From: Dokdonella fugitiva
GTDB taxonomy: Bacteria; Pseudomonadota; Gammaproteobacteria; Xanthomonadales; Rhodanobacteraceae
Direction of reading: 5' to 3'
Length of the DNA: 32,000 nucleotides
Assembly: GCF_004342425.1 (NCBI RefSeq)
Contig: NZ_SLWQ01000005.1
Span: 253,476 to 285,475, forward strand
The notes under the pieces are model-generated. The model searched no databases and was not told the DNA's origin. It saw only the letters and a program-made list of their open reading frames with translations. Each line of letters starts with the position of its first letter. Within the stretch, counting starts at the first letter, position 1. The position numbers were made by a program, and so were the translations under genes. Positions 4,684 to 24,507 of the stretch are shown piece by piece.

Positions 4684-5151
4684 ATGCCCAATATCGCCAC
4701 GTTCCTCAAAGCCGAAATCACACGCCTCGCACGCAAGGAAATCCGCGGTGAAATCGGTACGCTGCGCAAGACGAGCGCCGCGCACCGCCGCGACATTGCC
4801 GCGCTCAAGCGCGAAATCGCGAACCTGCAGCGGCAGAACAAGCAGCTCTCCAAGCGCGCCGCCGGCGCCTCCCAGGCCGCGACCGCCGAGTCCGGCGAAG
4901 GCGAAGTGAGGAACCGTTTCTCGGCCAAGGGCTTCAAGTCGATGCGCGCGCGCCTCGGCCTCTCGGCCGACCAACTCGCCACCCTGCTCGGCGCGAGCAT
5001 GCAGTCGGTCTACAACTGGGAACACGGCAAGACCGTCCCGCGCGCCAACCAGGTCGCCGCCATCGCCGCGCTGCGCACGATCGGCAAGAAGGAAGCGATG
5101 CGACGCCTCGAAGAGGCACAGGCGGCGGAGAAGCCGTCGCGCAAGCGCTGA
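4684..5151 (+). CDS. XRE-like helix-turn-helix DNA-binding protein with N-terminal coiled-coil region
   Basis: 155-aa ORF. The C-terminal segment LGLSADQLATLLGASMQSVYNWEHGKTVP is a classic HTH_XRE pattern. It sits outside the island repeat, so it is probably core genome. Confidence 0.6.
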   Translation: MPNIATFLKAEITRLARKEIRGEIGTLRKTSAAHRRDIAALKREIANLQRQNKQLSKRAAGASQAATAESGEGEVRNRFSAKGFKSMRARLGLSADQLATLLGASMQSVYNWEHGKTVPRANQVAAIAALRTIGKKEAMRRLEEAQAAEKPSRKR

Positions 5152-5324
5152 AGCAGTCACGCGCGTTCAAGCAGACGAGCAGCACGGCGCACGTCACCCT
5201 CGCGAAAGCGAAATTCCATCTGCATCGGCTTAGGACGTCAGATCCCCGCCGCCTGGGATGACGAAACGCGTTCACATGATCGGCCGTGGTCGACATGGAA
5301 ACGCAGCGCGCGTGCGTGCGCGAT

Positions 5325-5338
5325 GTGCCCGGACCCGG
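5325..5338. repeat. distal att direct repeat (copy of tRNA-Leu 3' end)
   Basis: GTGCCCGGACCCGG is identical to 14398-14411. It corresponds to the T-stem 3' strand, acceptor 3' strand, discriminator and first C of CCA. Confidence 0.7.
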
Positions 5339-5341
5339 CGT

Positions 5342-5437
5342 CGCATTGCGCACGCATGTTATTGATTTACAGAGCATCGGCATGCGACAACCCGAGCAGA
5401 TACCCCCGAAAGAACCCCCGCGCTTGGCGCGGGGCGA
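5342..5437. repeat. element-end module, copy L (CGCATT / TGATTTAC / GATACCCC / GAACCCC blocks plus GC hairpin)
   Basis: The four blocks sit at offsets 0, +21, +57 and +70, exactly as in copy M at 7825. They are followed by the hairpin CCCCGCGC-TTG-GCGCGGGG (5416-5434) and GCGGGGCGA. Confidence 0.6.
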
Positions 5438-5555
5438 GCCGCTCCGATGCGGCTCCAAAAGCTACCGTAGTTGGTAGATGCGTCTACCGGCGCTAGTAGC
5501 TCCGCTGTGCTCGAATTTCTCGGCGCCACTTCGGCGCGACGAGAGGATCGACACC

Positions 5556-5921
5556 ATGGACACGAGCACCGCCCTGCGCACCGCGATCGAGCTGCTGACC
5601 CAGGTCGCCGACCGAGCATGCGCGAACGGCGCGATTGCAGCCCTGCCGCCCGACTTCGACGACCGCTACGACGAGTTGACGGACGCGCTGAGCGGAATCG
5701 CTGGACAGCCGCGCGCCGCATGCTCTCAGCCACCGGCGGCCACCAAGTCGACCGCGGCACTCATGACCGCACGCGAAGTCATGGCAGATACGGCCATGAG
5801 CCGCAGCACGCTCTACCGCTTGATCCGCGAGGGGCGCTTTCCTGCGCCGGCGAAGGTCGGCACGATGTCGCGCTGGCACGCAACCGCGGTCGCGGATTGG
5901 AAGGCGCGGCTCTTCGCATGA
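5556..5921 (+). CDS. AlpA-family HTH regulator/excisionase-like protein with ~70-aa N-terminal extension
   Basis: The C-terminal MSRSTLYRLIREGRFPAPAKVGTMSRWHATAVADWK is the AlpA (CP4-57 regulatory) signature. GAGAGGA lies 8 nt upstream of ATG 5556. The stop overlaps the integrase ATG (ATGA at 5918-5921). An alternative start at 5763 would give a 52-aa AlpA-only protein. Confidence 0.7.
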   Translation: MDTSTALRTAIELLTQVADRACANGAIAALPPDFDDRYDELTDALSGIAGQPRAACSQPPAATKSTAALMTAREVMADTAMSRSTLYRLIREGRFPAPAKVGTMSRWHATAVADWKARLFA

Positions 5922-7132
5922 GCTGCCGCCAACTTCACCGACTCACCGCGCGCGCGGTCGCGACCGCGACGACGCCAGGATACATCGCCGACGGCGGCGG
6001 CCTGTATTTGCAGATTACCGCAAGCGGCGCGCGGAGTTGGGTCTTGCGGTTCATGTTGCGCGGTCGCGCGCGCGAAATGGGGCTCGGCTCGGCCACGATG
6101 GTTGGGCTCGCAGAGGCGCGCCAACGCGCGGCGGAGTGCCGACGCCAGCTCGCCGACGGCATCGATCCCATCGACGCCAGAGCGCGCGCACGCGCGCAGA
6201 ACGCTCACACCTTCGAGGCGGTCGCGACGGAGTACATCGATGCGAACGCAGGCGGATGGCGCAGCGCCAAACATGCCGATCAATGGCGGCAGTCGCTCGG
6301 GACGTACGCGTTCCCGGTCATCGGCCGCATGCCGGTTGCGGCGATCGACCTCGCGCACGTGCTCCGCGTGCTGGAGCCTGTCTGGACAACCAAGACAGAG
6401 ACGGCCACGCGCGTGCGCCAGCGCATCGAAGCCGTGCTCGACTACGCTGCGGTGAAGCGGTACCGGGCGGCGGGCAGCGAGAACCCGGCGCGCTGGCGCG
6501 GGCACCTGCAGCGGATCCTCCCCAAGCCGTCCCGCGTGTCGCGCGTGCGGCACATGAGCGCGCTGCACTACAGCGAACTGCCGGCGTTCATGGCCACGCT
6601 ACGCGCGCTGCCGCAGGGCCCGGCCGCGCTGGCGCTGCAGTTCACCATCCTGACCTGCGCGCGAACGGGCGAGGCGCGAGCGGCGACCATGGGCGAGATC
6701 GACGTCGACGCGGCGCTATGGACCGTGCCAGGGTCGCGCATGAAGGCGGGCAGGGAACACGTCGTCCCGCTCTCGGCCGCCGCGCTCGGCGTCGTGCGCG
6801 CGACCGGCGTCACGGAAGGGGCGCTGTTCACCTATCGGCGGGCGCCGATCAGCAACAACGCAATGCTCGCGCTCCTGCGCCGCATGGGTCGCGGCGACAT
6901 CACCGTGCACGGCTTCCGCTCGACCTTCAAGGACTGGGCGACCGAGCAGACCGACTTCCCGACCGACGCGATCGAGATCGCGTTGGCGCACACCGTCGGC
7001 GACAAGACCGAGCAGGCGTATCGGCGCGGCAACCTGCTGGCGAAGCGCCGCGCGCTCGCCGACGCCTGGGCGGCGTACTGTGGGAGCGTCACGCAGCCCG
7101 GGCGATCCCCACCGCGGGATATGCGGTGGTAG
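5918..7132 (+). CDS. int: tyrosine integrase (arm-binding DUF4102-type N-domain plus phage integrase catalytic domain)
   Basis: N-terminus LTARAV..PGYIADGGGLYLQI..SWVLRF..MGLGS, and catalytic motifs ARTGEAR, HGFRSTFKDW and EQAYRRG. Start chosen at ATG 5918. The 5471-5917 extension of the listed ORF overlaps alpA and is rejected. Confidence 0.9.
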   Translation: MSCRQLHRLTARAVATATTPGYIADGGGLYLQITASGARSWVLRFMLRGRAREMGLGSATMVGLAEARQRAAECRRQLADGIDPIDARARARAQNAHTFEAVATEYIDANAGGWRSAKHADQWRQSLGTYAFPVIGRMPVAAIDLAHVLRVLEPVWTTKTETATRVRQRIEAVLDYAAVKRYRAAGSENPARWRGHLQRILPKPSRVSRVRHMSALHYSELPAFMATLRALPQGPAALALQFTILTCARTGEARAATMGEIDVDAALWTVPGSRMKAGREHVVPLSAAALGVVRATGVTEGALFTYRRAPISNNAMLALLRRMGRGDITVHGFRSTFKDWATEQTDFPTDAIEIALAHTVGDKTEQAYRRGNLLAKRRALADAWAAYCGSVTQPGRSPPRDMRW

Positions 7133-7292
7133 CCTTTGGCCGCTCGCACCCGTCCACTACTGGAGAAGTGCCTTGACGACCAAGCCCGCACCGCCGCCGC
7201 CGCGGCAACCGCCTACCCCGCATCCTCGCAATCTGCCGCCATTTCGAACCGTCCCGCCGCCGCCACCGCCGTCGAAGCAGGGCTAGGCTCAA

Positions 7293-7775
7293 ATGCGACC
7301 CGACGAGATGCAGGCGCGAACCTCGACTGAGGCCCGAAACGACCTCATCTACCAGATCCGTTTGCACGAGCTTCACGCTACGCTCTTCCGACGGTTGAAA
7401 TGGTTGGCGTCGCTCGTCTCATTGCTTGCTGGTGCGTCGGCCGTGACGAGTTGGGTTCAATCGCAGCCCGGCGGCGTGTTTGTAGCGGGCTTGGTAGTCA
7501 CGATCACCGGCGTTCTCGACATCCTTGGGCGCTGGGAGGAGCGAGGCGCAGCACATCGCGCGTGGCGCCGCCAATTCGCCGAAATTCTTGCGGAAGCGCC
7601 TGTGCTATCGGACGAGGATCTGCATGCGGCCTACGTGCGGGCCGAGGCGAGCGTCGACGACACGCTACGAAGCTTGGAGCGCGTTGCGTACAACGACGCC
7701 ATGCGCTCGCTCGGCCTGTATACGCGGCGGGTGTGGGAATGGCCATCGAACTGGTTAATGCGCTTGTTCGTGTAG
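7293..7775 (+). CDS. small two-TM protein with SLATT-like architecture (tentative)
   Basis: 160 aa, built as an N-terminal helix, two adjacent TM helices (WLASLVSLLAGASAVTSWV and GVFVAGLVVTITGVLDILG) and a helical C-terminus. This layout resembles SLATT/DUF4231 2TM effectors. The assignment is by eye only. Confidence 0.5.
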   Translation: MRPDEMQARTSTEARNDLIYQIRLHELHATLFRRLKWLASLVSLLAGASAVTSWVQSQPGGVFVAGLVVTITGVLDILGRWEERGAAHRAWRRQFAEILAEAPVLSDEDLHAAYVRAEASVDDTLRSLERVAYNDAMRSLGLYTRRVWEWPSNWLMRLFV

Positions 7776-7824
7776 GGAGCGGGAGCATTGATCCAAAGCG
7801 ATATTCGATGCCGCATGCAGCACC

Positions 7825-7930
7825 CGCATTCACGCGCCAACGTGCTGATTTACCTGCCAGCTTGCTGACGCAAGATTGAGCGATACCCCGACCTGAACCC
7901 CAAAAAAGCGCCCCGCGTGAGGCGGGGCGA
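7825..7930. repeat. element-end module, copy M
   Basis: CGCATT 7825, TGATTTAC 7846, GATACCCC 7882 and GAACCCC 7895 have the same spacing as copy L. They are followed by a GC hairpin ending in GCGGGGCGA. Confidence 0.6.
7901..7929 (-). terminator. rho-independent terminator of the minus-strand island operon
   Basis: On the minus strand, stem CGCCCCGC / GCGGGGCG with a 5-nt loop is followed by TTTTTT (A-run 7902-7907 on plus). It lies 26 nt downstream of the 7955 stop. Confidence 0.75.
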
Positions 7931-7954
7931 ATGGCTGGCGCACGCGGGAACGGA

Positions 7955-8695
7955 TCACGCCGCGCGGATCTCGAGACTCTTCTTCGGCGCGAGCGCATCG
8001 ATCGCCTCGACGTACTGCGGGACGACCGTACGAAGCCACGCGAGACGCTCCTGCGCTTCGCTGCGCAGCGTCGCCTCGCGCGGGTTGGCCCGTGCCATCG
8101 CGTTCGCCCAGGCGGTCGGCAGCGTCGCCGCGAGCACGCCGGGCAACGGCATGGGCGAACGCATGAGCGCGACGAGCGCGCGCGGATGCTTCCCGTCCAT
8201 AAGTTCGTGCGCGAGCCTTGCCTGCGCATCGGGCGACATCGCGCGCCAGAGGTCGCGCACCTCGCGATCCTCCGCCGCACCGACGGCATCGTTCATCGCC
8301 AGCGGCGGCGGCGAGCATGATTTCGCGTCGGCCTCCGCGAACTCGTCGATGCGCTTCATCGCCTCTACGCGCGCGCCCTCGATCTCGTTGCGAGCCGCCG
8401 CGGCGATGGCTCGACGCTGCTCGGCCTTCCATGCGTCGGTGCGCGTGGCGTCGGCCTCCACGTCGGCAATGCGCTTCGCGGCGCTCGCGGCGATGCGCAG
8501 CACCTTCGCTGCGTGGTTGAACTCGGCGTGGTCCGTATTGGCATGAAGCGGCGCGCGCAGCGCAACAACGCCGCCAGTCGCAAGGCGGAGAGCGGATATC
8601 CCGTCGGGCTCGCCCCGCTCGACCTGGCCCCAGATCGGGGTAACGCCGAGTTCGGAAAAGCTCTCCGCAAAGCGGAGTGATTCTGCGTGGTTCAT
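7955..8695 (-). CDS. hypothetical protein, 246 aa, Ala/Arg-rich and largely helical
   Basis: Last ORF of the island operon. Its ATG overlaps the upstream stop (ATGA at 8692-8695) and it is followed by a terminator. No motif recognised. Confidence 0.55.
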   Translation of the reverse strand: MNHAESLRFAESFSELGVTPIWGQVERGEPDGISALRLATGGVVALRAPLHANTDHAEFNHAAKVLRIAASAAKRIADVEADATRTDAWKAEQRRAIAAAARNEIEGARVEAMKRIDEFAEADAKSCSPPPLAMNDAVGAAEDREVRDLWRAMSPDAQARLAHELMDGKHPRALVALMRSPMPLPGVLAATLPTAWANAMARANPREATLRSEAQERLAWLRTVVPQYVEAIDALAPKKSLEIRAA

Positions 8696-8901
8696 CGCGA
8701 GCCCCCGATGCGCTGCGGGTCGTGCTTCGGCGCGTTGCTGTGGTCGTGGTTTCCGCGGTCGTGCGCGGCGGCATTGCCGGTAGCGTCGACCGGGCGCATG
8801 CCCTCCGCGACGAGGCCGGCGCCGGGATTCGATGCGGGCGCGGCCGGCGCGTGCGCGGCGCTTGCGCCGTTCACGAGTGCCTGAGGATTGAAACCTTTCA
8901 T
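8692..8901 (-). CDS. hypothetical small low-complexity protein, 69 aa
   Basis: ATG at 8901 with AGAGG about 11 nt upstream, and a 4-nt overlap with the next gene. Composition is Ala/Pro/His-rich, so coding status is uncertain. Confidence 0.35.
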   Translation of the reverse strand: MKGFNPQALVNGASAAHAPAAPASNPGAGLVAEGMRPVDATGNAAAHDRGNHDHSNAPKHDPQRIGGSR

Positions 8902-8952
8902 GGGTGCGTGCCTCTTTTGTCGTTCGCCGCGAACCGCGCGGCAGCGGGTTTG

Positions 8953-9147
8953 CTATACAGGCCTCGCCGTGCGCGGCGTGAGCGTCAGCGCAATGATCGG
9001 CGCGCGTGGATTGGCCGCTTTGGCCGCGGCGAGGTCGCGCTCGCTTGGGGAGTACAGGACAACGGCGGACTGCGGCAGATCGCGAGTCGCGCGCACGCGC
9101 TCGAGGCGCCGCTCGATCCGCGCAAGCCGGGAGCGCATGCCCCTCAT
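8953..9147 (-). CDS. hypothetical small protein, 64 aa, N-terminal RLARIERRLE motif
   Basis: ATGA overlap with the upstream ORF at 9144-9147. Its N-terminal motif is shared with the neighbouring 100-aa ORF. Confidence 0.4.
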   Translation of the reverse strand: MRGMRSRLARIERRLERVRATRDLPQSAVVLYSPSERDLAAAKAANPRAPIIALTLTPRTARPV

Positions 9148-9446
9148 GCCGACGCCCTCCGCTCGAGGTCAGCGAGTTCGATCTGCTGATCGCGCGCCAG
9201 GCGCGACCACGTGTCGGCGTCGATCACGGCCGGCACGAGCAGGCCACGTCCGACGATGTGCCCGTCCGCCAGCCGGCGCGCCGACGCAGCGTGCGCGGGC
9301 ATGCCGCGCCGCTCGCACGCGGCGGCCTCGCGCAGCACGTCTCGGCGCACGCCTTCGGGCACAGGCGCGCATTCGGCGCCGCCATGTCGCGCGCGCTTCG
9401 CTTCCAGCGCGCCGAGTCGGCGAATCAGGTCACGACGCATCGGCAT
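9144..9446 (-). CDS. hypothetical protein, 100 aa, N-terminal RRLGALEAKR motif
   Basis: GGAGGGAA lies immediately upstream of ATG 9446. There is a 17-nt overlap with the upstream DUF5681 ORF. Confidence 0.45.
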   Translation of the reverse strand: MPMRRDLIRRLGALEAKRARHGGAECAPVPEGVRRDVLREAAACERRGMPAHAASARRLADGHIVGRGLLVPAVIDADTWSRLARDQQIELADLERRASA

Positions 9447-9852
9447 TTCCCTCCAGCTCGGCCAGCCGGCGCTCGATCTCGTCCGCCTGGCGAATGTCCG
9501 AGCAACCGCGCAGTGCGGCGATCAGCTCGGCCGCGACGTCGGGCGCCAGTTCGCCAGCCGCGGCGGCGCGCACGAGCGCCTGCGCGGCCTCTGCCGGCGT
9601 CGTGGCGTTCGCAGCCGACTCGACCACGATGGGCTCGCGCGTCGCGCGCAGGGGCGGCGCCACGCGCGAGAGCACGAGCGCAATCGCGGCAACGTCGCCG
9701 TTGCGCGCGCGGTGAAGCAACGCCTGCAGGACGTCAGGCATCGCGCCATCGAACGCTTGGCGAATGCGCGAACGCTTGTCGACGATGCCGCGCGGCCGCC
9801 CCTTCGGGTTGCCAGACTGCCCCGGCTTGAAGGGCCTTCCACGCTCAGCCAT
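9430..9852 (-). CDS. DUF5681-type protein, candidate small-terminase-like (TerS-like)
   Basis: The N-terminal GRPFKPGQSGNPKGRPRG is the DUF5681 signature as I recall it, a family often seen at the terS position in phages and GTA-like elements. Start moved to ATG 9852 (GGAGCAGCAC upstream) rather than the listed GTG 9867. Confidence 0.6.
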   Translation of the reverse strand: MAERGRPFKPGQSGNPKGRPRGIVDKRSRIRQAFDGAMPDVLQALLHRARNGDVAAIALVLSRVAPPLRATREPIVVESAANATTPAEAAQALVRAAAAGELAPDVAAELIAALRGCSDIRQADEIERRLAELEGNADAS

Positions 9853-10474
9853 GTGCTGCTCCCTCACTGTTTATATCAGCGCCGCCCGGCGTGTGTTCGG
9901 CGTCACGGATTCCGTACGCTTCGCTAGCAGCGGCTCTGATCTCAGTCACTGTGTCGTAGAGGAGGCCGCCCTGAGCCATCAGGGAATCAAACTCAGCACG
10001 ATTGCGTGCGATCGCATCGCGCTGCTCCTGCGGTGCGCAGTCGAAAAAAACGTTCGCAGGAATTTCCTCGATAAACTTCGCATCGTGACGCTCAAACGCG
10101 ATTTCGGCTTCGGCTCGAACGTGATCTCCCACTGAGTATTTCGCGACAACAAACTCGTGTAGGGGTTCGCCTTCGCAGGCGCAAGGGAAGAATTTGCTCA
10201 GCATCACTATCGACGGCGATGCGAAGATCCTCTCGGGAACTAGCGCCATGGTTTGCCAAGCGCTGAATACGGCGGGCTTCTCCCGAACATCGAATGCATA
10301 CACCCCCCAACCGGTCTGGAGGTAACAAAGCAACAAGGCGACGCGGTCACAAGCATTCGACTGCCAGGGCCCGAGCCTGGACACGCGGTGTTCCAAGCGA
10401 TACGCGTTCCTCATCCTGCCCAAACCCCGAATGAAAACGGCGTTCCTCATGGCTTGCTGGTGCTGCTCAGACAT
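9845..10474 (-). CDS. orphan hypothetical protein, 209 aa, in a lower-GC patch (candidate accessory cargo)
   Basis: GGGAG lies 8 nt upstream of ATG 10474. The 60-nt lines at 10081, 10141 and 10201 count 53, 55 and 57% GC, against 73% for the line at 11041. No motif recognised. Confidence 0.6.
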   Translation of the reverse strand: MSEQHQQAMRNAVFIRGLGRMRNAYRLEHRVSRLGPWQSNACDRVALLLCYLQTGWGVYAFDVREKPAVFSAWQTMALVPERIFASPSIVMLSKFFPCACEGEPLHEFVVAKYSVGDHVRAEAEIAFERHDAKFIEEIPANVFFDCAPQEQRDAIARNRAEFDSLMAQGGLLYDTVTEIRAAASEAYGIRDAEHTPGGADINSEGAAHG

Positions 10475-10525
10475 CTCATCGGCTCCCGAAAACTGCGCTG
10501 CTCCAAATCCCCATACCCCTAGGGA

Positions 10526-10594
10526 TTAATTCGGCGCACATGCGCGCGCCGATTAACCCAATGCGCCTAACCCGTATTCGGCGCATTCGGCGCA
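10526..10594. promoter_or_regulatory. iteron-like repeat cluster / palindromic operator at the 3' end of the ATPase gene (candidate ori)
   Basis: ATTCGGCGCA occurs at 10529-10538, 10576-10585 and 10585-10594. There is an imperfect palindrome TTAATTCGGCGC (10526-10537) / GCGCCGATTAA (10546-10556). ATGCGC recurs three times, and the palindrome CCCTAGGG lies at 10517-10524. Confidence 0.45.
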
Positions 10595-11763
10595 TGCGCC
10601 CGGATCGCGTACCGCCGCCGCACCTTTCGCTGCGGGGTCAGGTACTCCTCGCGCACGAGCTCGCCGGAATCCTCGAGGCGCGCCAGGGCGGCCCAGAAAC
10701 GCGGCTTGGCCCGCAGCGCCGAAGGGAAGCCGGGGAGGTCTACGGCGGTCGTGTACGTCGTGGCGCAGCCGGTGCGGTGGCAGCCGATGACGTCGCCGCG
10801 CACGATGGCTGCGCGCAGGCAGTGCAGCAGCAACAAGTCGTCGCCGCCGGTGGCGTCCCCGGCAGCCGCCGGCAGCGGGACGCCTGCCGCGTTGACGCGA
10901 AGCGGGATCGAGTCAACGCGGCGGCACAGGTTCGCCTTCTCGTGCCGCAGCTCGAGCGCGCCGTCGCTGTCGACGAGCGCGAGGCGCGAGCGCGCGCTGT
11001 TGTGCCACGCGGTGCTTCCGCTGAACGTGTTTCCGCTCGCCCCGTGCCGCGCAGCGTGCTTGTCGACGTGCACGAGCAACAACACCGCGGCGCCGGCGTC
11101 GCGCCCGATCTTGGCGAGCGCGCGGACGAACGTGCGGACCTGCCGGCGATCGTTCTCGTTCGCGTCGTACGCGTCGGATGCATTGTCGATCACGACGAGC
11201 GCCGCATCGGCGGCCGCATCGCGAACCTGGTGCATCGTCGAGGTCGGCTCGAGCACGGCACGCCCGGCGATGACGAGTTCGTACGCGAGCGCGGTTGCAT
11301 CGGCCTCGGTTCCGTCGAGGATGATGAGACTGCGCGCGACGGCGAACGCGTCGAGCTGGTAGGCGTCGCAGATCGCGCGCAGGCGCCAGCGGACAAGCTC
11401 GCCGGGATCTTCCAGCGAGACGAACACCGCGCGCCCCTGCGCGCACGCGAGTGAGGCCCACGGCACGCCGGCGGCAACATGGGCAGCGATCGCGAGCGCG
11501 AGCGTGCTCTTGCCCGTGCCGCCGTGCCCGCCGAGCAGCGTGACGTGTCCGCGCGGAACGATGCGGTCGACGACGAACTCGGGCGCCTGCAGGGTCGCGG
11601 CGGCGAGATCGCCCACCTCGACGACGCGCAGCGATGCCTCGACGGTCATCGCCGGCGCCGGGCGCAACCATCGGCGCGCATTGTCGAGCCGAGCGAGGTC
11701 GCGTTCAGACAGTTCGTCGATGTCGCGCAGGCGTCGCGGCAACAACTCGGGAGCGGCGCTCAT
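10567..11763 (-). CDS. RepA/AAA_25-type (RecA-fold) replicative ATPase/helicase-like protein
   Basis: Walker A GGHGGTGKST and Walker B-like ALVVIDNASD. Start set at ATG 11763, which overlaps the upstream stop (ATGA). The Arg-rich 11764-12042 extension is rejected. Confidence 0.8.
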   Translation of the reverse strand: MSAAPELLPRRLRDIDELSERDLARLDNARRWLRPAPAMTVEASLRVVEVGDLAAATLQAPEFVVDRIVPRGHVTLLGGHGGTGKSTLALAIAAHVAAGVPWASLACAQGRAVFVSLEDPGELVRWRLRAICDAYQLDAFAVARSLIILDGTEADATALAYELVIAGRAVLEPTSTMHQVRDAAADAALVVIDNASDAYDANENDRRQVRTFVRALAKIGRDAGAAVLLLVHVDKHAARHGASGNTFSGSTAWHNSARSRLALVDSDGALELRHEKANLCRRVDSIPLRVNAAGVPLPAAAGDATGGDDLLLLHCLRAAIVRGDVIGCHRTGCATTYTTAVDLPGFPSALRAKPRFWAALARLEDSGELVREEYLTPQRKVRRRYAIRAHAPNAPNTG

Positions 11764-12194
11764 GCGGTCAGTACCTCGCGCGCGCATTGGATGCGGTCGA
11801 TCGCCTCGCGCAGCCGCGCGATGTCGTCGGCGTCGAACAAGGCACCATCTTCGATGGCCTTGGCAGCCGCGAGCGCGACGGCGCTCTCGCGTGCGAGCAC
11901 GCGCACCGCCGCGGACCAATCCGCATCGCGCGCAGCGCGGCGGCGCTCCTCTCGCGCCATTGGCGAGTGATCGCCCAGGCGGGCAGCGAAGAGGTCCGCG
12001 ACGCTGAGCCCGACAGCGCCCACGACGTCGGCGACCGGGCATCCACTGAAACAGTGGGCCAACACGCGTCCGTCATCACCGACGGCGATCGACAGCGAGG
12101 CGGTGCGATCGTCATGCGCCGGGCAACGCGCTGTCCAGCCGTTACCGCTGCGGCGGACGCCGATCAAGCGCGACAGCAGTGCGTCGACGCTCAA
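11760..12194 (-). CDS. primase-type zinc-finger protein (CHC2-like), no catalytic primase domain evident
   Basis: The motif WTARCPAHDDRTASLSI..HCFSGC is a typical primase/helicase-loader zinc ribbon. A TTG start overlaps the upstream stop (TTGA at 12191-12194). Confidence 0.65.
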   Translation of the reverse strand: MSVDALLSRLIGVRRSGNGWTARCPAHDDRTASLSIAVGDDGRVLAHCFSGCPVADVVGAVGLSVADLFAARLGDHSPMAREERRRAARDADWSAAVRVLARESAVALAAAKAIEDGALFDADDIARLREAIDRIQCAREVLTA

Positions 12195-12628
12195 GCGAAG
12201 TGCCTGCGGCTCTCGCGGCGATCCGCGACGCGCCGATGGTCAGCGAGGGCGCGCAGCAGCCCGTCAGCCGCGGCCTTCCACTCGGGGATGCGCGCGAGGC
12301 CACGGTCCGACCCCAGCCGGCGCACGGCAACGCGAAGCTGCGTCAGGCGGCGCGACGACGCCGGATAGCGCAGCGCGCTGAGCGCGTCGCATATGGTGCG
12401 CATGCTCTCGACATCGGCGGCGATGACCGCGGCGCGCAATGCGTCGCGCACGTCGGAGAGCAGGGCGGCAACGGCGCGATCGGTCTTGCCGTTCGGGAGA
12501 CGGACATGCGCAGCCAGGGCGACAGAGGCGCGGCCGAGCTCTTGCGACGCGCGGTGATGCGCGAACAGCGCGCGAAACGCGGCCTCGAGCGCTGCCGCGC
12601 GATCTGCGGAGCGAAGCGGCGCGCTCAT
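12191..12628 (-). CDS. hypothetical helical protein, 145 aa
   Basis: Start set at ATG 12628, overlapping the alpA stop (ATGA at 12625-12628). No motif recognised. Confidence 0.5.
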   Translation of the reverse strand: MSAPLRSADRAAALEAAFRALFAHHRASQELGRASVALAAHVRLPNGKTDRAVAALLSDVRDALRAAVIAADVESMRTICDALSALRYPASSRRLTQLRVAVRRLGSDRGLARIPEWKAAADGLLRALADHRRVADRRESRRHFA

Positions 12629-12849
12629 GCGGCCGCCTTGCGTGCACGCGACGCCGCAACGCGGTCGGCGATCCATGCACACACTTCCGCTTCACGCCAA
12701 GCGGCGCACCGCTCCGAAATCTTGATCGGTGCCGGAAACTTGCGCTGCGCGACGAGCGCGTAGGTCTGTGACCGGCCCAAGCCGGTGAGGTGCATGACCT
12801 CGCGCAGCCGAATGAGGCGCTGGGTGGCAAGCTCTTGCATGGGGCGCAC
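12625..12849 (-). CDS. alpA: AlpA-family transcriptional regulator/excisionase-like protein
   Basis: 74 aa. LIRLREVMHLTGLGRSQTYALVAQRKFPAPIKISERCAAWREAEVCAWI is the AlpA signature. Confidence 0.8.
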   Translation of the reverse strand: MRPMQELATQRLIRLREVMHLTGLGRSQTYALVAQRKFPAPIKISERCAAWREAEVCAWIADRVAASRARKAAA

Positions 12850-12888
12850 CTTGTTGGGATCAGGTGCGTCCAGAATCGTCCGGCGCGC

Positions 12889-13018
12889 GTTGACACTCCA
12901 TCGCGCCGAATCAGCGGCCTTGCAGCTATCGGATCAACGACTTGCGCTGTAGCTCGGCACGCGCGATCTGCGCAAGGCCTTGATTTTCCGTGTTGACAGT
13001 CCTCAACGATCCGTCAAC
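12889..13018. promoter_or_regulatory. repeated GTTGACA(C/G)TCC boxes in the int-alpA intergenic region (candidate operator)
   Basis: GTTGACACTCC at 12889-12899 and GTTGACAGTCC at 12992-13002 match at 10 of 11 positions. An inverted GTCAAC lies at 13013-18, 15 nt from the second box. Confidence 0.35.
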
Positions 13019-14225
13019 GCGCTGCGCGCATGGGCACGACGTTCGAACCCGAGCGCAGCGCATCGAGGTAGTCGGCCCACGCCTGCATCATCCTGATGCG
13101 CTCCTTGAGATACATCGCGCGGTTGTAGACGGCGCGCACCTTGTTTCGCTCGGCGTGCGCGAGCTGGCGCTCGATCACGTCAGGCGACCACCCCATTTCG
13201 TTCAAACGCGTCGAGGCCATCGCGCGGAACCCGTGCGCCGTCATCGTGTCGCCGTCGTAGCCGAGCCGGCGCAGAGCAGCCGTGATGGTGTTCTCGCTCA
13301 TGGGCCGGTCAGGCGTCCGCAAGCTCGGGAACACGTAGCGGCGCGATCCCGTGAGCGGTTGAATCGCACGCAGAATCGCGACCGCCTGCGTAGCGAGCGG
13401 CACCACGTGCCCCTCGCGCATCTTCATCCGGCTGGCCGGGATGCGCCATTCGTGCGCGTCGAGGTCGACCTCCGCCCACTCCATCGCTCGCAGCTCGCCG
13501 GGACGCACGAACAGCAGCGCCGAAAGCTTGAGCGCAGCGGCCGTCGTCGGCTGTCCGATGTAGCCGTCGAGCGCGCGGAGCAGCTCGGCGACCTTCGAGG
13601 GATCCGTTATCGCAGCATGCGATGTCGCGACGACGGGCGCGAGCGCGCCGCGTAGGTCGGCAGTCGGGTCGCGCATCGCGCGTCCGGTCGCGACCGCGTA
13701 GCGGAATACCTGGCTCGCCTTCTGGCGCGCGCGATGCGCGGTCTCGATCGTCCCAGCGGACTCGATGCGCCGGAGTGCGGCCAGCACATCCGGCGCGGCG
13801 ATCGCCGCAATGGGCATCGCGTGAATCGGCGCGAGCAACCCGAGCAGCCATTGCGCCTTCGCGCGCGTGACCGGCGCGAGCGCGTCCTTCTGCCGCGCGA
13901 GCCACTCGTCGGCGATCGCCCGAAAGCTTTCCGCTGCCCCGACTCGAGCGGCGACCTTGCGAGCGCGCCGCGCCTGCGATGGGTCGACACCCTCGCGCAA
14001 CAATGCGCGCGCCTCGTCGCGACGCTGGCGCGCTTCGGCGAGCGAGACCTCGGGGTATGCGCCGAACGAGAGCAGCAGCTCCTTTCCGGCGAAACGGTAC
14101 TTCATGCGCCACAGACGCGAGCCGCTCTGCCTCACGAGCAGAAACAGGCCGCCACCGTCGAACAGCTTCCCAGGTGCCGCGCTCTTGATCGCGAGCGCCG
14201 TCAGCTTTCCCATGCGCGCCGTCAC
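13014..14225 (-). CDS. int: P4/CP4-57-type tyrosine integrase
   Basis: N-terminus KLTALAIKSAAPGKLFDGGGLFLLV..RLWRMKYRFAGKE..FGAYPEVSLAEAR, and catalytic motifs VRPGELR, HGFRAMAST and RAVYNRA. It directly abuts the tRNA-Leu 3' end. The listed start is GTG 14225, with an alternative ATG at 14213. Confidence 0.9.
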   Translation of the reverse strand: MTARMGKLTALAIKSAAPGKLFDGGGLFLLVRQSGSRLWRMKYRFAGKELLLSFGAYPEVSLAEARQRRDEARALLREGVDPSQARRARKVAARVGAAESFRAIADEWLARQKDALAPVTRAKAQWLLGLLAPIHAMPIAAIAAPDVLAALRRIESAGTIETAHRARQKASQVFRYAVATGRAMRDPTADLRGALAPVVATSHAAITDPSKVAELLRALDGYIGQPTTAAALKLSALLFVRPGELRAMEWAEVDLDAHEWRIPASRMKMREGHVVPLATQAVAILRAIQPLTGSRRYVFPSLRTPDRPMSENTITAALRRLGYDGDTMTAHGFRAMASTRLNEMGWSPDVIERQLAHAERNKVRAVYNRAMYLKERIRMMQAWADYLDALRSGSNVVPMRAAR

Positions 14226-14229
14226 GTGC

Positions 14230-14281
14230 GTACCCCCGCAGACAGGGCCAACGCAGGCCCGATACCCCGGACGATACCCCC
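14230..14281. repeat. three (G/A)TACCCC boxes between int and the tRNA (candidate integrase arm-type sites)
   Basis: GTACCCCC at 14230-14237, GATACCCC at 14261-14268 and GATACCCC at 14273-14280. They have the same orientation as the boxes at 5399 and 7882. Confidence 0.4.
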
Positions 14282-14395
14282 AAGGCTCGCCGGATTCAAC
14301 CGAACGCTCGCGGACCCTACTGGACGAAATACCGCTCGATTTATGGCCTTTTCACGCAGACGCCGGACGTTGGCGGACCGTTGTGGAGGCTGCTT

Positions 14396-14482
14396 TGGTG
14401 CCCGGACCCGGACTCGAACCGGGATGACCTTGCGGTCGAGGGATTTTAAGTCCCTTGCGGCTACCGATTTCGCCATCCGGGC
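14396..14482 (-). tRNA. tRNA-Leu (anticodon UAA), type II with long variable arm
   Basis: The reverse complement folds as a cloverleaf. Acceptor is GCCCGGA/TCCGGGC, anticodon arm AGGGA-CTTAAAA-TCCCT, T arm CCCGG-TTCGAGT-CCGGG, and CCA is encoded. Confidence 0.9.
14398..14411. repeat. proximal att direct repeat within the tRNA-Leu 3' end
   Basis: GTGCCCGGACCCGG, identical to 5325-5338. Confidence 0.7.
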
Positions 14483-14589
14483 AGCGCACGAGGCGATGGT
14501 AGCGTCTGCGCGCCTGGATCGCGCGCGCCGGGATGCCGCGCCTCGGGACATGGCGCCGGCCCGTGCGCGGGCTGGCGGATCGCGGGCAC

Positions 14590-14613
14590 AAAAAAACCCG
14601 CATCGCTGCGGGT
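14590..14613 (-). terminator. terminator-like hairpin between tRNA-Cys and tRNA-Leu
   Basis: Minus-strand stem ACCCGCA / TGCGGGT with a 4-nt loop, followed by TTTTTTT (A-run 14590-14596 on plus). Confidence 0.55.
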
Positions 14614-14650
14614 CCTTTTGGCCACCGGCATCGCGGGTGCGCGGCGCGGA

Positions 14651-14724
14651 TGGAGGCTTGGGTCGGAATCGAACCGGCGTACGCGGATTTGCAGTCCGCT
14701 GCATGACCACTCTGCCACCAAGCC
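14651..14724 (-). tRNA. tRNA-Cys (anticodon GCA)
   Basis: Acceptor GGCTTGG/CCAAGCC and anticodon arm GCGGA-CTGCAAA-TCCGC. The T arm has one C-A mismatch. CCA is encoded. Confidence 0.85.
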
Positions 14725-14762
14725 GTGGCTGTCGCGTGCCGTGCATCTTGCGACGTCCGGCA

Positions 14763-14793
14763 GAAAAACGAAACCCCGGCGTGCCGGGGTTTC
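14763..14793 (-). terminator. terminator-like hairpin between tRNA-Gly and tRNA-Cys
   Basis: An 11-bp perfect stem GAAACCCCGGC / GCCGGGGTTTC (14770-14793), followed on the minus strand by GTTTTTC. Confidence 0.5.
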
Positions 14794-14801
14794 ATCGAAA
14801 C

Positions 14802-14877
<76 letters not shown>

Positions 14878-22684: not shown

Positions 22685-23251
22685 TCAGGCGGTCGGCAGG
22701 GTGACGCCGGTCTGACCCATGTACTTGCCGCCGCGGTCCTTGTAGCTCGTCTCGCACTCCTCGTCGGATTCGAGGAACAGCATCTGCGCGACGCCCTCAT
22801 TGGCGTAGATGCGTGCCGGCAGCGGTGTGGTGTTGGAGAACTCGAGCGTGACGTGGCCCTCCCATTCGGGCTCCAGCGGCGTCACGTTGACGATGATGCC
22901 GCAACGCGCGTACGTGCTCTTGCCCAGGCAGATCGTCAGCACCTTGCGCGGGATGCGGAAGTACTCGACCGTGCGCGCGAGCGCGAACGAGTTCGGCGGG
23001 ATGATGCAGACGTCGGACTTGACGTCGACGAAGCTGCGTTCGTCGAAGTGCTTGGGATCGACGATCGTCGAGTTGATGTTGGTGAACACCTTGAACTCGT
23101 CCGCGCAGCGCACGTCGTAGCCGTAGCTCGACGTGCCATACGAGACCAGCCGCTTGCCTTCGTGCTGCTTCACCTGCTGCGGCGCGAACGGCTCGATCAT
23201 GCCGTGCTGCTCGGCCATGCGGCGGATCCAACGGTCGGATTTGATGGACAT
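22685..23251 (-). CDS. dcd: dCTP deaminase
   Basis: 188 aa: [44 protein letters not shown]. It is the C-terminal part of the artefactual 640-aa listed ORF. Confidence 0.9.
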
Positions 23252-23410
23252 TGGGAGTGGGAATGGGAATGGGAATGGGGATGGGGAATGGGGGATGGGG
23301 AATGGGGAATGGGGAATGGGGAATGGGGAATGGGGAATGGACTGGGGACGAGAGGGATTGGGAACGGCAGCGCTGAAAAACCATTCCCTATTCCCTATTC
23401 CCCATTCCCC
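23252..23410. repeat. GGGAAT/GGGGAAT tandem array with a complementary C-rich arm (long imperfect inverted repeat; G-quadruplex-prone)
   Basis: Six perfect GGGGAAT units at 23297-23338 and degenerate units from 23252. A 40-nt spacer follows, then CCATTCCCTATTCCCTATTCCCCATTCCCC at 23381-23410. Confidence 0.9.
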
Positions 23411-23415
23411 GCCTC

Positions 23416-24507
23416 CTACGTGTCCTGCACCACGATCTTCGGAAACGCGATCGCCTTGTTGCGAGCGCGCAGCGACAGGCGGCCGGCGGCGTTGCGCGCG
23501 ATCTCGCGGTAACGCGCGGCGAGGTCGGAGTCGGGCATCGCGGCGACCGTCGGCGTGCCACCGTCGGCCTGCTCGCGGATGCGGATGTCGAGCGGCAGGC
23601 TGCCGAGCATCGGCACGCCGTACTGCGCGGCCATGCGCGCGCCGCCGCCTTCGCCGAACACGTGTTCCTCGTGGCCGCAGTTCGTGCAGACGTGCGTCGC
23701 CATGTTCTCGACGATGCCGAGCACGGGCACGTTGACCTTCTCGAACATCTTGAGCGCCTTCCTTGCGTCCAGCAGCGCGATGTCCTGCGGTGTCGTCACG
23801 ATGATCGCGCCGGACACCGGGATGCGCTGGCACAGGGTCAGCTGGATGTCGCCCGTGCCTGGCGGCAGGTCGATGACGAGGTAGTCGAGGTCGGACCAGT
23901 TCGTCTCGCCGAGCATCTGCTGCAGCGCCTGCGTCGCCATCGGCCCGCGCCAGATCATCGCGGTGTCTTCCTCGATCATGAGGCCGATCGACATCGCCTG
24001 CACGCCATGGCTCAGCTTCGGCTCGATGCGCTTGCCGTCCTTCGTGTCCGGCTTGCCTTCGAGGCCGAGCATGCGCACCTGGCTCGGGCCGTAGATGTCC
24101 GCGTCGAGCACGCCGACGCTCGCGCCTTCGGCCTTCAGCGCGAGCGCGAGGTTGGCGGCGACGGTCGACTTGCCGACGCCGCCCTTGCCCGACGCCACTG
24201 CGATCACGTTCTTCACGCCGGGGAGCGGCGTCAGCCCCTGCTGTACCTCGTGCGCGACGACGCGGCAGGCGACGCCGACCGCCGCATGCGCGATCGCAGG
24301 ATCCGACTCGAGCGCACGCTTCACCTCGTCGGCGAGCGCGGCCTGCGCCGACAGTGCGGGATAGCCGAGCACGATGTCGACCGACACGTCGCTGCCGGAC
24401 ACGCCGACGCCGCGCACGGCGCCACTCGCGGCGAGGTCCTTGCCGGTGTGCGGATCGACGATGCCGGCGAGGATCTGCCGGGCGCGGGCTTCGAGGGAGT
24501 CGGTCAT
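23416..24507 (-). CDS. apbC: Fe-S cluster carrier ATPase ApbC/Mrp
   Basis: 363 aa with Walker [11 protein letters not shown], a CxxC (CTNCGH) motif, and an N-terminal DUF59-like region. Confidence 0.9.

Follow-up and report, generated by a model that had tools for sequence, protein, structure and literature searches.

The window analysed here, 32,000 nucleotides of Dokdonella fugitiva contig NZ_SLWQ01000005.1 (forward-strand positions 253,476 to 285,475; GC content ~68%), holds a minus-strand cluster of tRNA-Gly, tRNA-Cys and tRNA-Leu genes (14396-14877 in window coordinates) and, at the tRNA-Leu(taa) gene of that cluster (14396-14482), a genomic island. The 14 nt of this gene's acceptor end (14398-14411), the core of the left attachment (att) site attL, recur once, at 5325-5338, where the displaced copy of the tRNA 3′ end forms the attR core (GTGCCCGGACCCGG; CCGGGTCCGGGCAC on the minus strand). 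The two copies bound an island of 9.06 kb and are the only ones in the window at one mismatch or fewer; no further core copy was found inside the island at up to three mismatches. Two integrases are encoded: int1 (13014-14225, minus strand; one gene call starts at the ATG at 14213), next to the tRNA gene, and int2 (5918-7132, plus strand), the middle gene of a plus-strand cassette, alpA-int2-orf160, that faces the minus-strand genes of the int1 element. Our subject is a pair of modules on either side of this cassette, L (5342-5437) and M (7825-7930).

Both integrases are of the P4 family and have an Arm-DNA-bind_3 domain, a Phage_int_M domain and a catalytic domain (Pfam; PF13356 matches at E 3e-25 for int1 and 7e-21 for int2), and they are 34% identical to each other. 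Integrases of the int1 type are heterobivalent tyrosine integrases, with an N-terminal domain that binds the arms of the att site.

L and M were compared ungapped at an offset of 2483, since MAFFT put the pair out of register. Four blocks are exact between them: CGCATT (5342 and 7825, +0), TGATTTAC (5363 and 7846, +21), GATACCCC (5399 and 7882, +57) and GAACCCC (5412 and 7895, +70). Identity amounts to 40/77: the blocks contribute 29 bases and the spacers 11 of 48, a spacer value at about the level of unrelated sequence at such composition. Both modules close with a GC-rich hairpin carrying GCGGGGCGA (5429-5437 and 7922-7930), and they differ in length by 10 nt. L starts 3 nt past the core copy at 5325-5338; the colinear position beside M, 7808-7821, matches the core at 6 of 14 positions. 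A preliminary description made from the letters of the window had reported these blocks at identical offsets, the common hairpin end and the unequal fit to the core, and all were reproduced; its view that the pair is no recent duplication agrees with the randomness of the spacers.

Read in the orientation of int1, the layout of these modules runs from a terminator hairpin through GGGGTTC and GGGGTATC, 12 nt apart, a free spacer of 31 nt, AATCA(A/G)-N4-(A/T)TG, 7 nt, AATGCG and 3 nt to the core. The pair GGGGTTC-N5-GGGGTATC occupies 5399-5418 in L and, from the word scan and alignment, 7882-7901 in M (both minus strand). We identify GAACCCC and GATACCCC as putative arm-type words, the short sites that the N-terminal domain of such an integrase would bind, and TGATTTAC as the conserved half of a site like that of integration host factor (IHF). 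The IHF-like site of M (AATCAGCACGTTG, 7838-7850, minus strand) fits the IHF consensus WATCARNNNNTTR perfectly and that of L (AATCAATAACATG, 5355-5367, minus strand) has one mismatch; the latter holds five of the eight bases (5363-5367) of the TGATTTAC block at 5363-5370. CGCATT (5342-5347 in L and 7825-7830 in M, minus strand; AATGCG in the orientation of int1) would be a candidate core-type half-site on the element side: relatives have (A/T)TGCG or TTTGCG in the same column, and the family consensus is roughly TTTGCG. From the M copy toward 7824, the sequence is not that of the tRNA-Leu core.

The same words stand before int1. Two copies of GGGGTATC, at 14261-14268 and 14273-14280 and so again phased by 12 nt, lie in the stretch that separates int1 from the tRNA gene, 36-55 nt ahead of the int1 start. 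Together with GGGGGTAC at 14230-14237 they make up an integrase-proximal set of minus-strand arm words at 14230-14280, 5-55 nt upstream of int1. In the 32 kb there are four copies of GATACCCC where 0.31 are expected, a count reached in 0 of 100 shuffles, and all four are at att-related positions (L, M and the pair at 14261 and 14273). The two-word pattern GATACCCC-N5-GAACCCC, at up to two mismatches, gives three matches where 0.01 are expected: L, M and 14261-14280.

Relatives of int1 were collected from IMG/VR (80 loci) and from a set of genomes with one per species (80 loci), with exact-protein look-ups in addition; handles such as L104 denote individual relative loci. In almost every relative locus with upstream sequence, two to four copies of a short word lie 20-70 nt before the integrase start, usually direct and at a phasing of ~12 nt, often with an inverted copy beside the ATG. 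Of 63 genome loci, 49 contain an identical 6-mer twice in direct orientation, 10-14 nt apart (mode 12), within the 120 nt upstream; control windows gave 12/63 and 3/63. The word itself varies with the integrase (GGGGTATC, GGGGTACC, GGGGTAAC, GGGGCATC, GGGGCAAC, GACGGTAT, GGCGGTAA, GAGTAAC, GGGTACGA and others), so that across ~150 relatives the repeated word changes when the integrase does, and it matches between the two arms of one element. Word classes seen in both arms number four: GGGGTA-type, GACGGTA, GGGTACG and GAGTA. Short-word repeats before an integrase gene are, by their pattern, the signature of arm-type sites over an integrase promoter.

The integrase-distal arms of relatives carry the argument further. 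An exact repeat of the attL core was present within the fetched flank of eight relative loci, to which a scan for word pairs added L104 and L123. L105, L116, L124, L133, L139, L142, L104 and L123 each have their own word twice just before the core copy, with orientation retained and a phasing of 12 nt; no word pair was identified in the distal arms of L112 and L127. In those GGGGTA-type arms where it was measured, the distal pair stands 58-60 nt before the core copy. The alignment of this class took in seven arms, namely L and M (reverse-complemented), L104, L105, L116, L123 and L142; they come from four different tRNA targets, and L116 and L123 are near-duplicates. They are colinear over ~100 nt, with gaps confined to the 10-nt insertion in the M hairpin and single-base gaps in L105 and in L116 and L123. 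The invariant columns are GGGGT, GGGGTA, TCA and T..G before the core, and the spacers are unrelated. Each of the seven has a TCAR-N4-WTR element whose start falls at +52/53, counted from the first word, and the segment identical to the tRNA begins at +73 to +80 in the aligned distal arms of relatives. The closest match is L104, whose integrase is 68% identical and whose target is tRNA-Leu(caa); it shares the 31-nt spacer, and its core is preceded by AATGATGCG. The alignment with the ends of related elements that had been proposed as a check thus found both blocks and spacing kept in five elements of other genomes.

On this evidence L and M are quite probably the integrase-distal att arms of two related elements of the int1 type that target tRNA-Leu(taa). 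The modules are real because GATACCCC is enriched, the two-word pattern is enriched, and the same blocks recur at the same spacing in independent elements elsewhere. They appear to belong to the int1-type system because their words are identical to those before int1 and the relatives of int2 differ in both core and words; the int2 cassette would then sit outside its native att context. The preliminary description had read the blocks as protein-binding arrays, such as integrase arm or IHF/Xis sites, and had placed the modules as flanks of the second integrase cassette. The former gains support from a word shared with the region upstream of int1 and co-varying with the integrase, and from the fixed position of the IHF-like site; the latter is correct as to position, though the modules go with int1 and not with int2. 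Directly observed are the motifs, their enrichment, the family-wide geometry and the co-variation with the integrase; which protein would bind which block, and in what order the events may have happened, is deduced from them.

The evidence on int2 itself comes from seven loci with int2 relatives that were read (L178, L186, L187, L004, L005, L010 and L011). Their words are TGGGTA-type, in the sense orientation of the integrase gene and directly before its ATG, and as core they have TGGCGGAG(A/C)G, a tRNA-Ser-like 3′ end in reverse complement, so that int2-type integrases sit at the tRNA-distal end of their elements and read inward. Neither the int2-family core nor TGGGTAG was found in the window, and the words of L are antisense to int2. 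Int2 was accordingly rejected as the reader of L.

If L and M are distal arms, the N-terminal domain of Int1 would dock on the word pair of L and on the identical words at 14261-14280, which probably also autoregulate int1. IHF would bend the arm, allowing the same Int protomers to reach the core with their catalytic domains; an intasome of attR and attL (or of attP) would form, and an AlpA-like protein would set the direction. Because L adjoins the intact 14-bp core, it should be the end usable now, and the unit predicted to excise today is 5339-14397, with alpA-int2-orf160 as a passenger. The predicted attP junction after excision is ...AATGCGACG-CCGGGTCCGGGCAC-CAAAGCAGCC.

M, which directly follows the last gene of the int1 element and terminates it, would for that reason be the native distal end of the present int1 element, its core lost and its position now internal. 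For L the simplest reading is that a second int1-type element, an older one, was once present, and that this end survived when the rest was lost or replaced. A deletion, possibly mediated by integrase at a middle core, is the simplest idea of how alpA-int2-orf160 may have come to lie between M and L.

The hairpins bear on this history. In M, eight GC pairs followed by TTTTTT (7909-7929, minus strand) form a putative intrinsic terminator 26 nt past the stop of orf246. The inner edge of L has two adjacent GC-rich hairpins (5416-5455, minus strand), the first of them terminator-like with a weak tail, TTCTTTC. The hairpins of both modules score as terminator-like on the minus strand; no open reading frame (ORF) with a coding-like GC content at third codon positions was found on the minus strand upstream of the L hairpin. 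The M hairpin is therefore a credible candidate for the terminator of orf246, and the L hairpin looks like a terminator in form only. L as a leftover element end is suggested by this terminator-like hairpin that ends no gene. Both readings had been put forward in the preliminary description, with M doubling as the terminator of the minus-strand operon and L as an orphaned element end, and both hold up. So does its picture of a composite island that is not a simple tandem at one core: the only two core copies are at the outer ends.

Several points weigh against the assignment of L and M to two int1-type arms. The core stands beside L (5325-5338 is identical to 14398-14411) and not beside M; a simple tandem would require one there, and none was found at up to three mismatches. 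M as a former attR arm is thus concluded from colinearity. Likewise, no tRNA remnant next to M emerged, with no Rfam tRNA match in 5000-8200 even at E <=10 and no core-like 14-mer. The IHF consensus is loose, L has ATG in place of TTR, and an IHF-like site was not found by eye in L133, the one arm outside the GGGGTA class that was read. The four-block pattern of L and M on its own has no significance. When all direct diagonals of the window were scored by the number of bases they hold in exact runs of >=6 nt inside a 77-nt stretch, L/M came first among the non-tandem ones with 29 block bases, followed by diagonals with 27, 26, 26 and 25. Twelve dinucleotide-preserving shuffles gave 0-6 four-run diagonals each, the real window having three, and one of the 12 shuffles reached 29 block bases. 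The weight that the preliminary description had put on the block statistic is hence not borne out. Finally, no close relative of the island was found in the collections searched. Int2 and orf246 are nearly unique, and orf160 and alpA have distant relatives only, in IMG/VR. The exact int2 protein was found in one Logan contig only, identical to the window. In blastn searches, with the junction regions compared to all the fetched loci and 5300-7950 to plasmids and phages, the only similarity was integrase-coding. An exact-pattern scan of IMG/VR for the module gave 0 matches. The same kind of scan of JGI metagenomes gave three matches, which we dismissed as chance because they are low in GC and have no tRNA gene (ARAGORN) or tRNA-like core nearby.

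An integrase and its recombination directionality factor (RDF) are inherited together, so arm sites of Int and sites of AlpA/Xis would show the same co-variation of the words with the element. The direct pairs with 12-nt phasing might instead be sites for an AlpA-like RDF and not for the N-terminal domain of Int. Direct repeats spaced by roughly one turn of the helix are typical of RDF sites, and both elements encode AlpA-like proteins. We consider this unlikely, however, since nearly all relatives have the words immediately before the integrase gene, even large prophages with no alpA call beside that gene (L178), inverted copies are often present, as expected for arm-type sites, and what all loci share is the Arm-DNA-bind_3 integrase that served as the query.

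L might also be part of the attachment region of the int2 cassette itself, the cassette (~5342-7824) having inserted at the junction of arm and core of the int1 element with a crossover in CGCATT. A look-alike distal arm brought in this way would restore a working attR for the host element, and the cassette would ride along. CGCATT is the sole exact identity at both cassette boundaries; M is without a core exactly where the cassette begins; and L is located where the spacer of an int2-proximal arm would be, int2-type integrases lying at the tRNA-distal end and reading inward. GTAGGGA at 7774-7780 also matches the word of the Dokdonella int2 type. On the other side, the core and the TGGGTA words in integrase sense that int2 relatives have are missing near int2, the words of L being antisense; a minus-strand terminator that ends no gene fits a relic better; and an identity of 6 nt is weak evidence. 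We regard such an origin of L as quite unlikely.

A more specific form of it, in which alpA-int2-orf160 is a hitchhiker specialised on int1-type elements that inserts at the distal arm/core junction via CGCATT and brings its own L, seems to us very unlikely. If it were true, the composite would keep a working attR and int1 would mobilise the cassette, in analogy to tRNA-targeting islands that carry a replacement tRNA 3′ end.

That the modules are a structured small RNA, a repeat of the REP (repetitive extragenic palindromic) or MITE (miniature inverted-repeat transposable element) type, or simply two terminators is extremely improbable. Both have stable hairpins and there are sub-threshold Rfam matches (E 0.36-0.76), but none reaches the gathering score, folding z-scores are merely -1.4 and -1.9, the conserved blocks lie outside the hairpins and are without pairing partners, and copies occur at element ends only, the three motif sites in the window all being att positions. 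Small RNA, MITE and recent duplication were rejected on Rfam, folding and the random spacers. A chance likeness of two GC-rich intergenic terminator regions, for which the shuffled diagonals above and two further four-run diagonals in the real window might speak, has next to no probability left and is already refuted by the enrichment of the motif at att-related sites and by independent elements that are colinear with invariant columns.

Given the assignment to int1-type distal arms, the sequence of parts resembles the P′ arm of lambda attP, in which the H′ IHF site is followed by the tandem arm-type sites P′1-P′3 (Ross and Landy, 1982, cited in PMC2951348). In both, core, IHF (or IHF-like) site and tandem direct arm-type sites fall within ~80 bp, and the word also occurs in the other arm; in lambda it is a heterobivalent tyrosine integrase whose N-terminal domain binds the sites. 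Unlike lambda, the arm here is far from the integrase gene and has two sites, not three, which are predicted and phased by 12 nt; the words differ, and the integrase belongs to another clade (P4-family, PF13356).

In KplE1 (CPS-53), integrated at argW, the IntS/TorI system has been studied experimentally: arm-type sites lie over the tRNA-adjacent integrase promoter in attL, with IHF and an RDF taking part, and the arrangement of IntS is reported as widespread at tRNA-adjacent integrase genes (PMC2951348). The present island is similar in having int1 beside a tRNA gene and putative arm-type words over its own promoter, from which negative autoregulation is predicted. That work concerned the integrase-proximal arm, whereas here there are two copies of a distal arm in a composite island.

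Islands of the P4 and CP4-57 type share the integrase family, a tRNA target (leuX for P4) and AlpA-type regulators, and the int1 element has a primase/helicase-like AAA_25 gene; words, core and host lineage differ from those of P4. P4 reportedly has repeated Int sites on both sides of its core, a finding said to go back to Pierson and Kahn in 1987; a literature search on the site layout of P4 attP gave nothing usable. As in the tandem arrays treated by Islander (PMC4383910), the island has multiple integrases and multiple element ends at a single tRNA gene, with a displaced tRNA fragment as its bound. It differs from them in that no middle tRNA fragment is present and the second integrase is of another subtype, facing inward from the distal end.

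There is no new biology in this. That att arms carry arm-type and IHF sites, and that islands at tRNA genes can be composite, is textbook knowledge and would not surprise a specialist; L and M, read as above, exemplify the att-arm organisation well known from heterobivalent tyrosine integrases, in this case within a composite tRNA island. What is gained is a definition of the island boundaries, with predicted functional ends at 5325-5338 plus L and at 14261-14411, along with two features named for direct testing, GGGGT(A)TC as a candidate arm-site word and the IHF-like site. With the pair set at 0, the putative bend site falls at +53 and the core at ~+78; this layout of the distal arm is rigid in the clade across tRNA targets and could help to annotate island ends where the repeated tRNA fragment is too short to find.

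The tRNA end of the island shows one further feature. The displaced fragment at 5325-5341 reads ...GGGCAC|ATCG and the reconstituted tRNA at 14396-14411 ...GGGCAC|CA. The tRNA-Leu gene before insertion was thus apparently without a full encoded CCA end, and the CCA seems to be supplied by the element.

Between the tRNA gene and the arm words, many relatives have, in this order, a hairpin serving as terminator of the tRNA, short repeats ('gtcc', 'cgtcc' and the like) and, right ahead of the words, a -35 element like TTGA(A/C)ATCC. In the window, TTGAATCC at ~14291-14298 (minus strand), within the 14282-14397 region, is comparable to that -35 element. This suggests a conserved integrase promoter, putatively overlapped by arm sites. 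In three relative loci, L051 (7950-8215), L186 (1340-1645) and L004 (2680-2915), a distal-type word pair, the core, the proximal words and the integrase gene are all contiguous, an arrangement that represents either attP in its circular form or a tandem junction keeping its middle core. No such contiguous junction lies next to M in the window.

Beyond int1, the minus strand of the int1 element encodes an AlpA-like protein, a Zn-ribbon DnaG-like/primase-like ORF, an AAA_25 NTPase, a DUF5681 protein, small ORFs and, as its last gene, orf246 (7955-8695); several of its ORFs between 8695 and 13014 have no Pfam match. In gene content the element is similar to a P4-like satellite or a small integrative element. 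Among 5.8 billion proteins orf246 is almost without homologues; a single relative, at 50%, lies on a contig of 931 nt. Homologues of the island integrases occur in Dokdonella, Rudaea and Lysobacter, in keeping with a Lysobacterales/Xanthomonadales-like host.

The cassette on the plus strand begins with an alpA-like gene for a putative excisionase or regulator (5556-5921; PF05930, E 2e-9), whose stop overlaps the start of int2. Int2 is 86% identical to the integrase of a Dokdonella fugitiva prophage (L178). Orf160 (7293-7775) has no Pfam match and one distant relative in IMG/VR. Upstream of alpA, at 5461-5501, CTACC, GGTAG, CTACC and CTAGTAG follow each other at ~12-nt spacing, an array read from the letters that could be an operator or a set of degenerate int2-type sites; nothing comparable was found among the int2 relatives. 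Overlapping the stop of orf160 is GTGTAGGGAGCGGGAGC (7771-7790), which has the 7-mer GTAGGGA in common with the arm word GCGGGTAGGGAC at 9985-9996 of L178. It may be a relic int2-type site or a coincidence, the chance being estimated roughly by hand at ~0.08.

Outside the island, the 7-nt unit GGGAATG stands 12 times in tandem (93% matches) at 23259-23340, an array that dominates the self-comparison diagonals of the window. It sits between candidate ORFs at 22809-23120 (plus strand) and 23416-24507 (minus strand).

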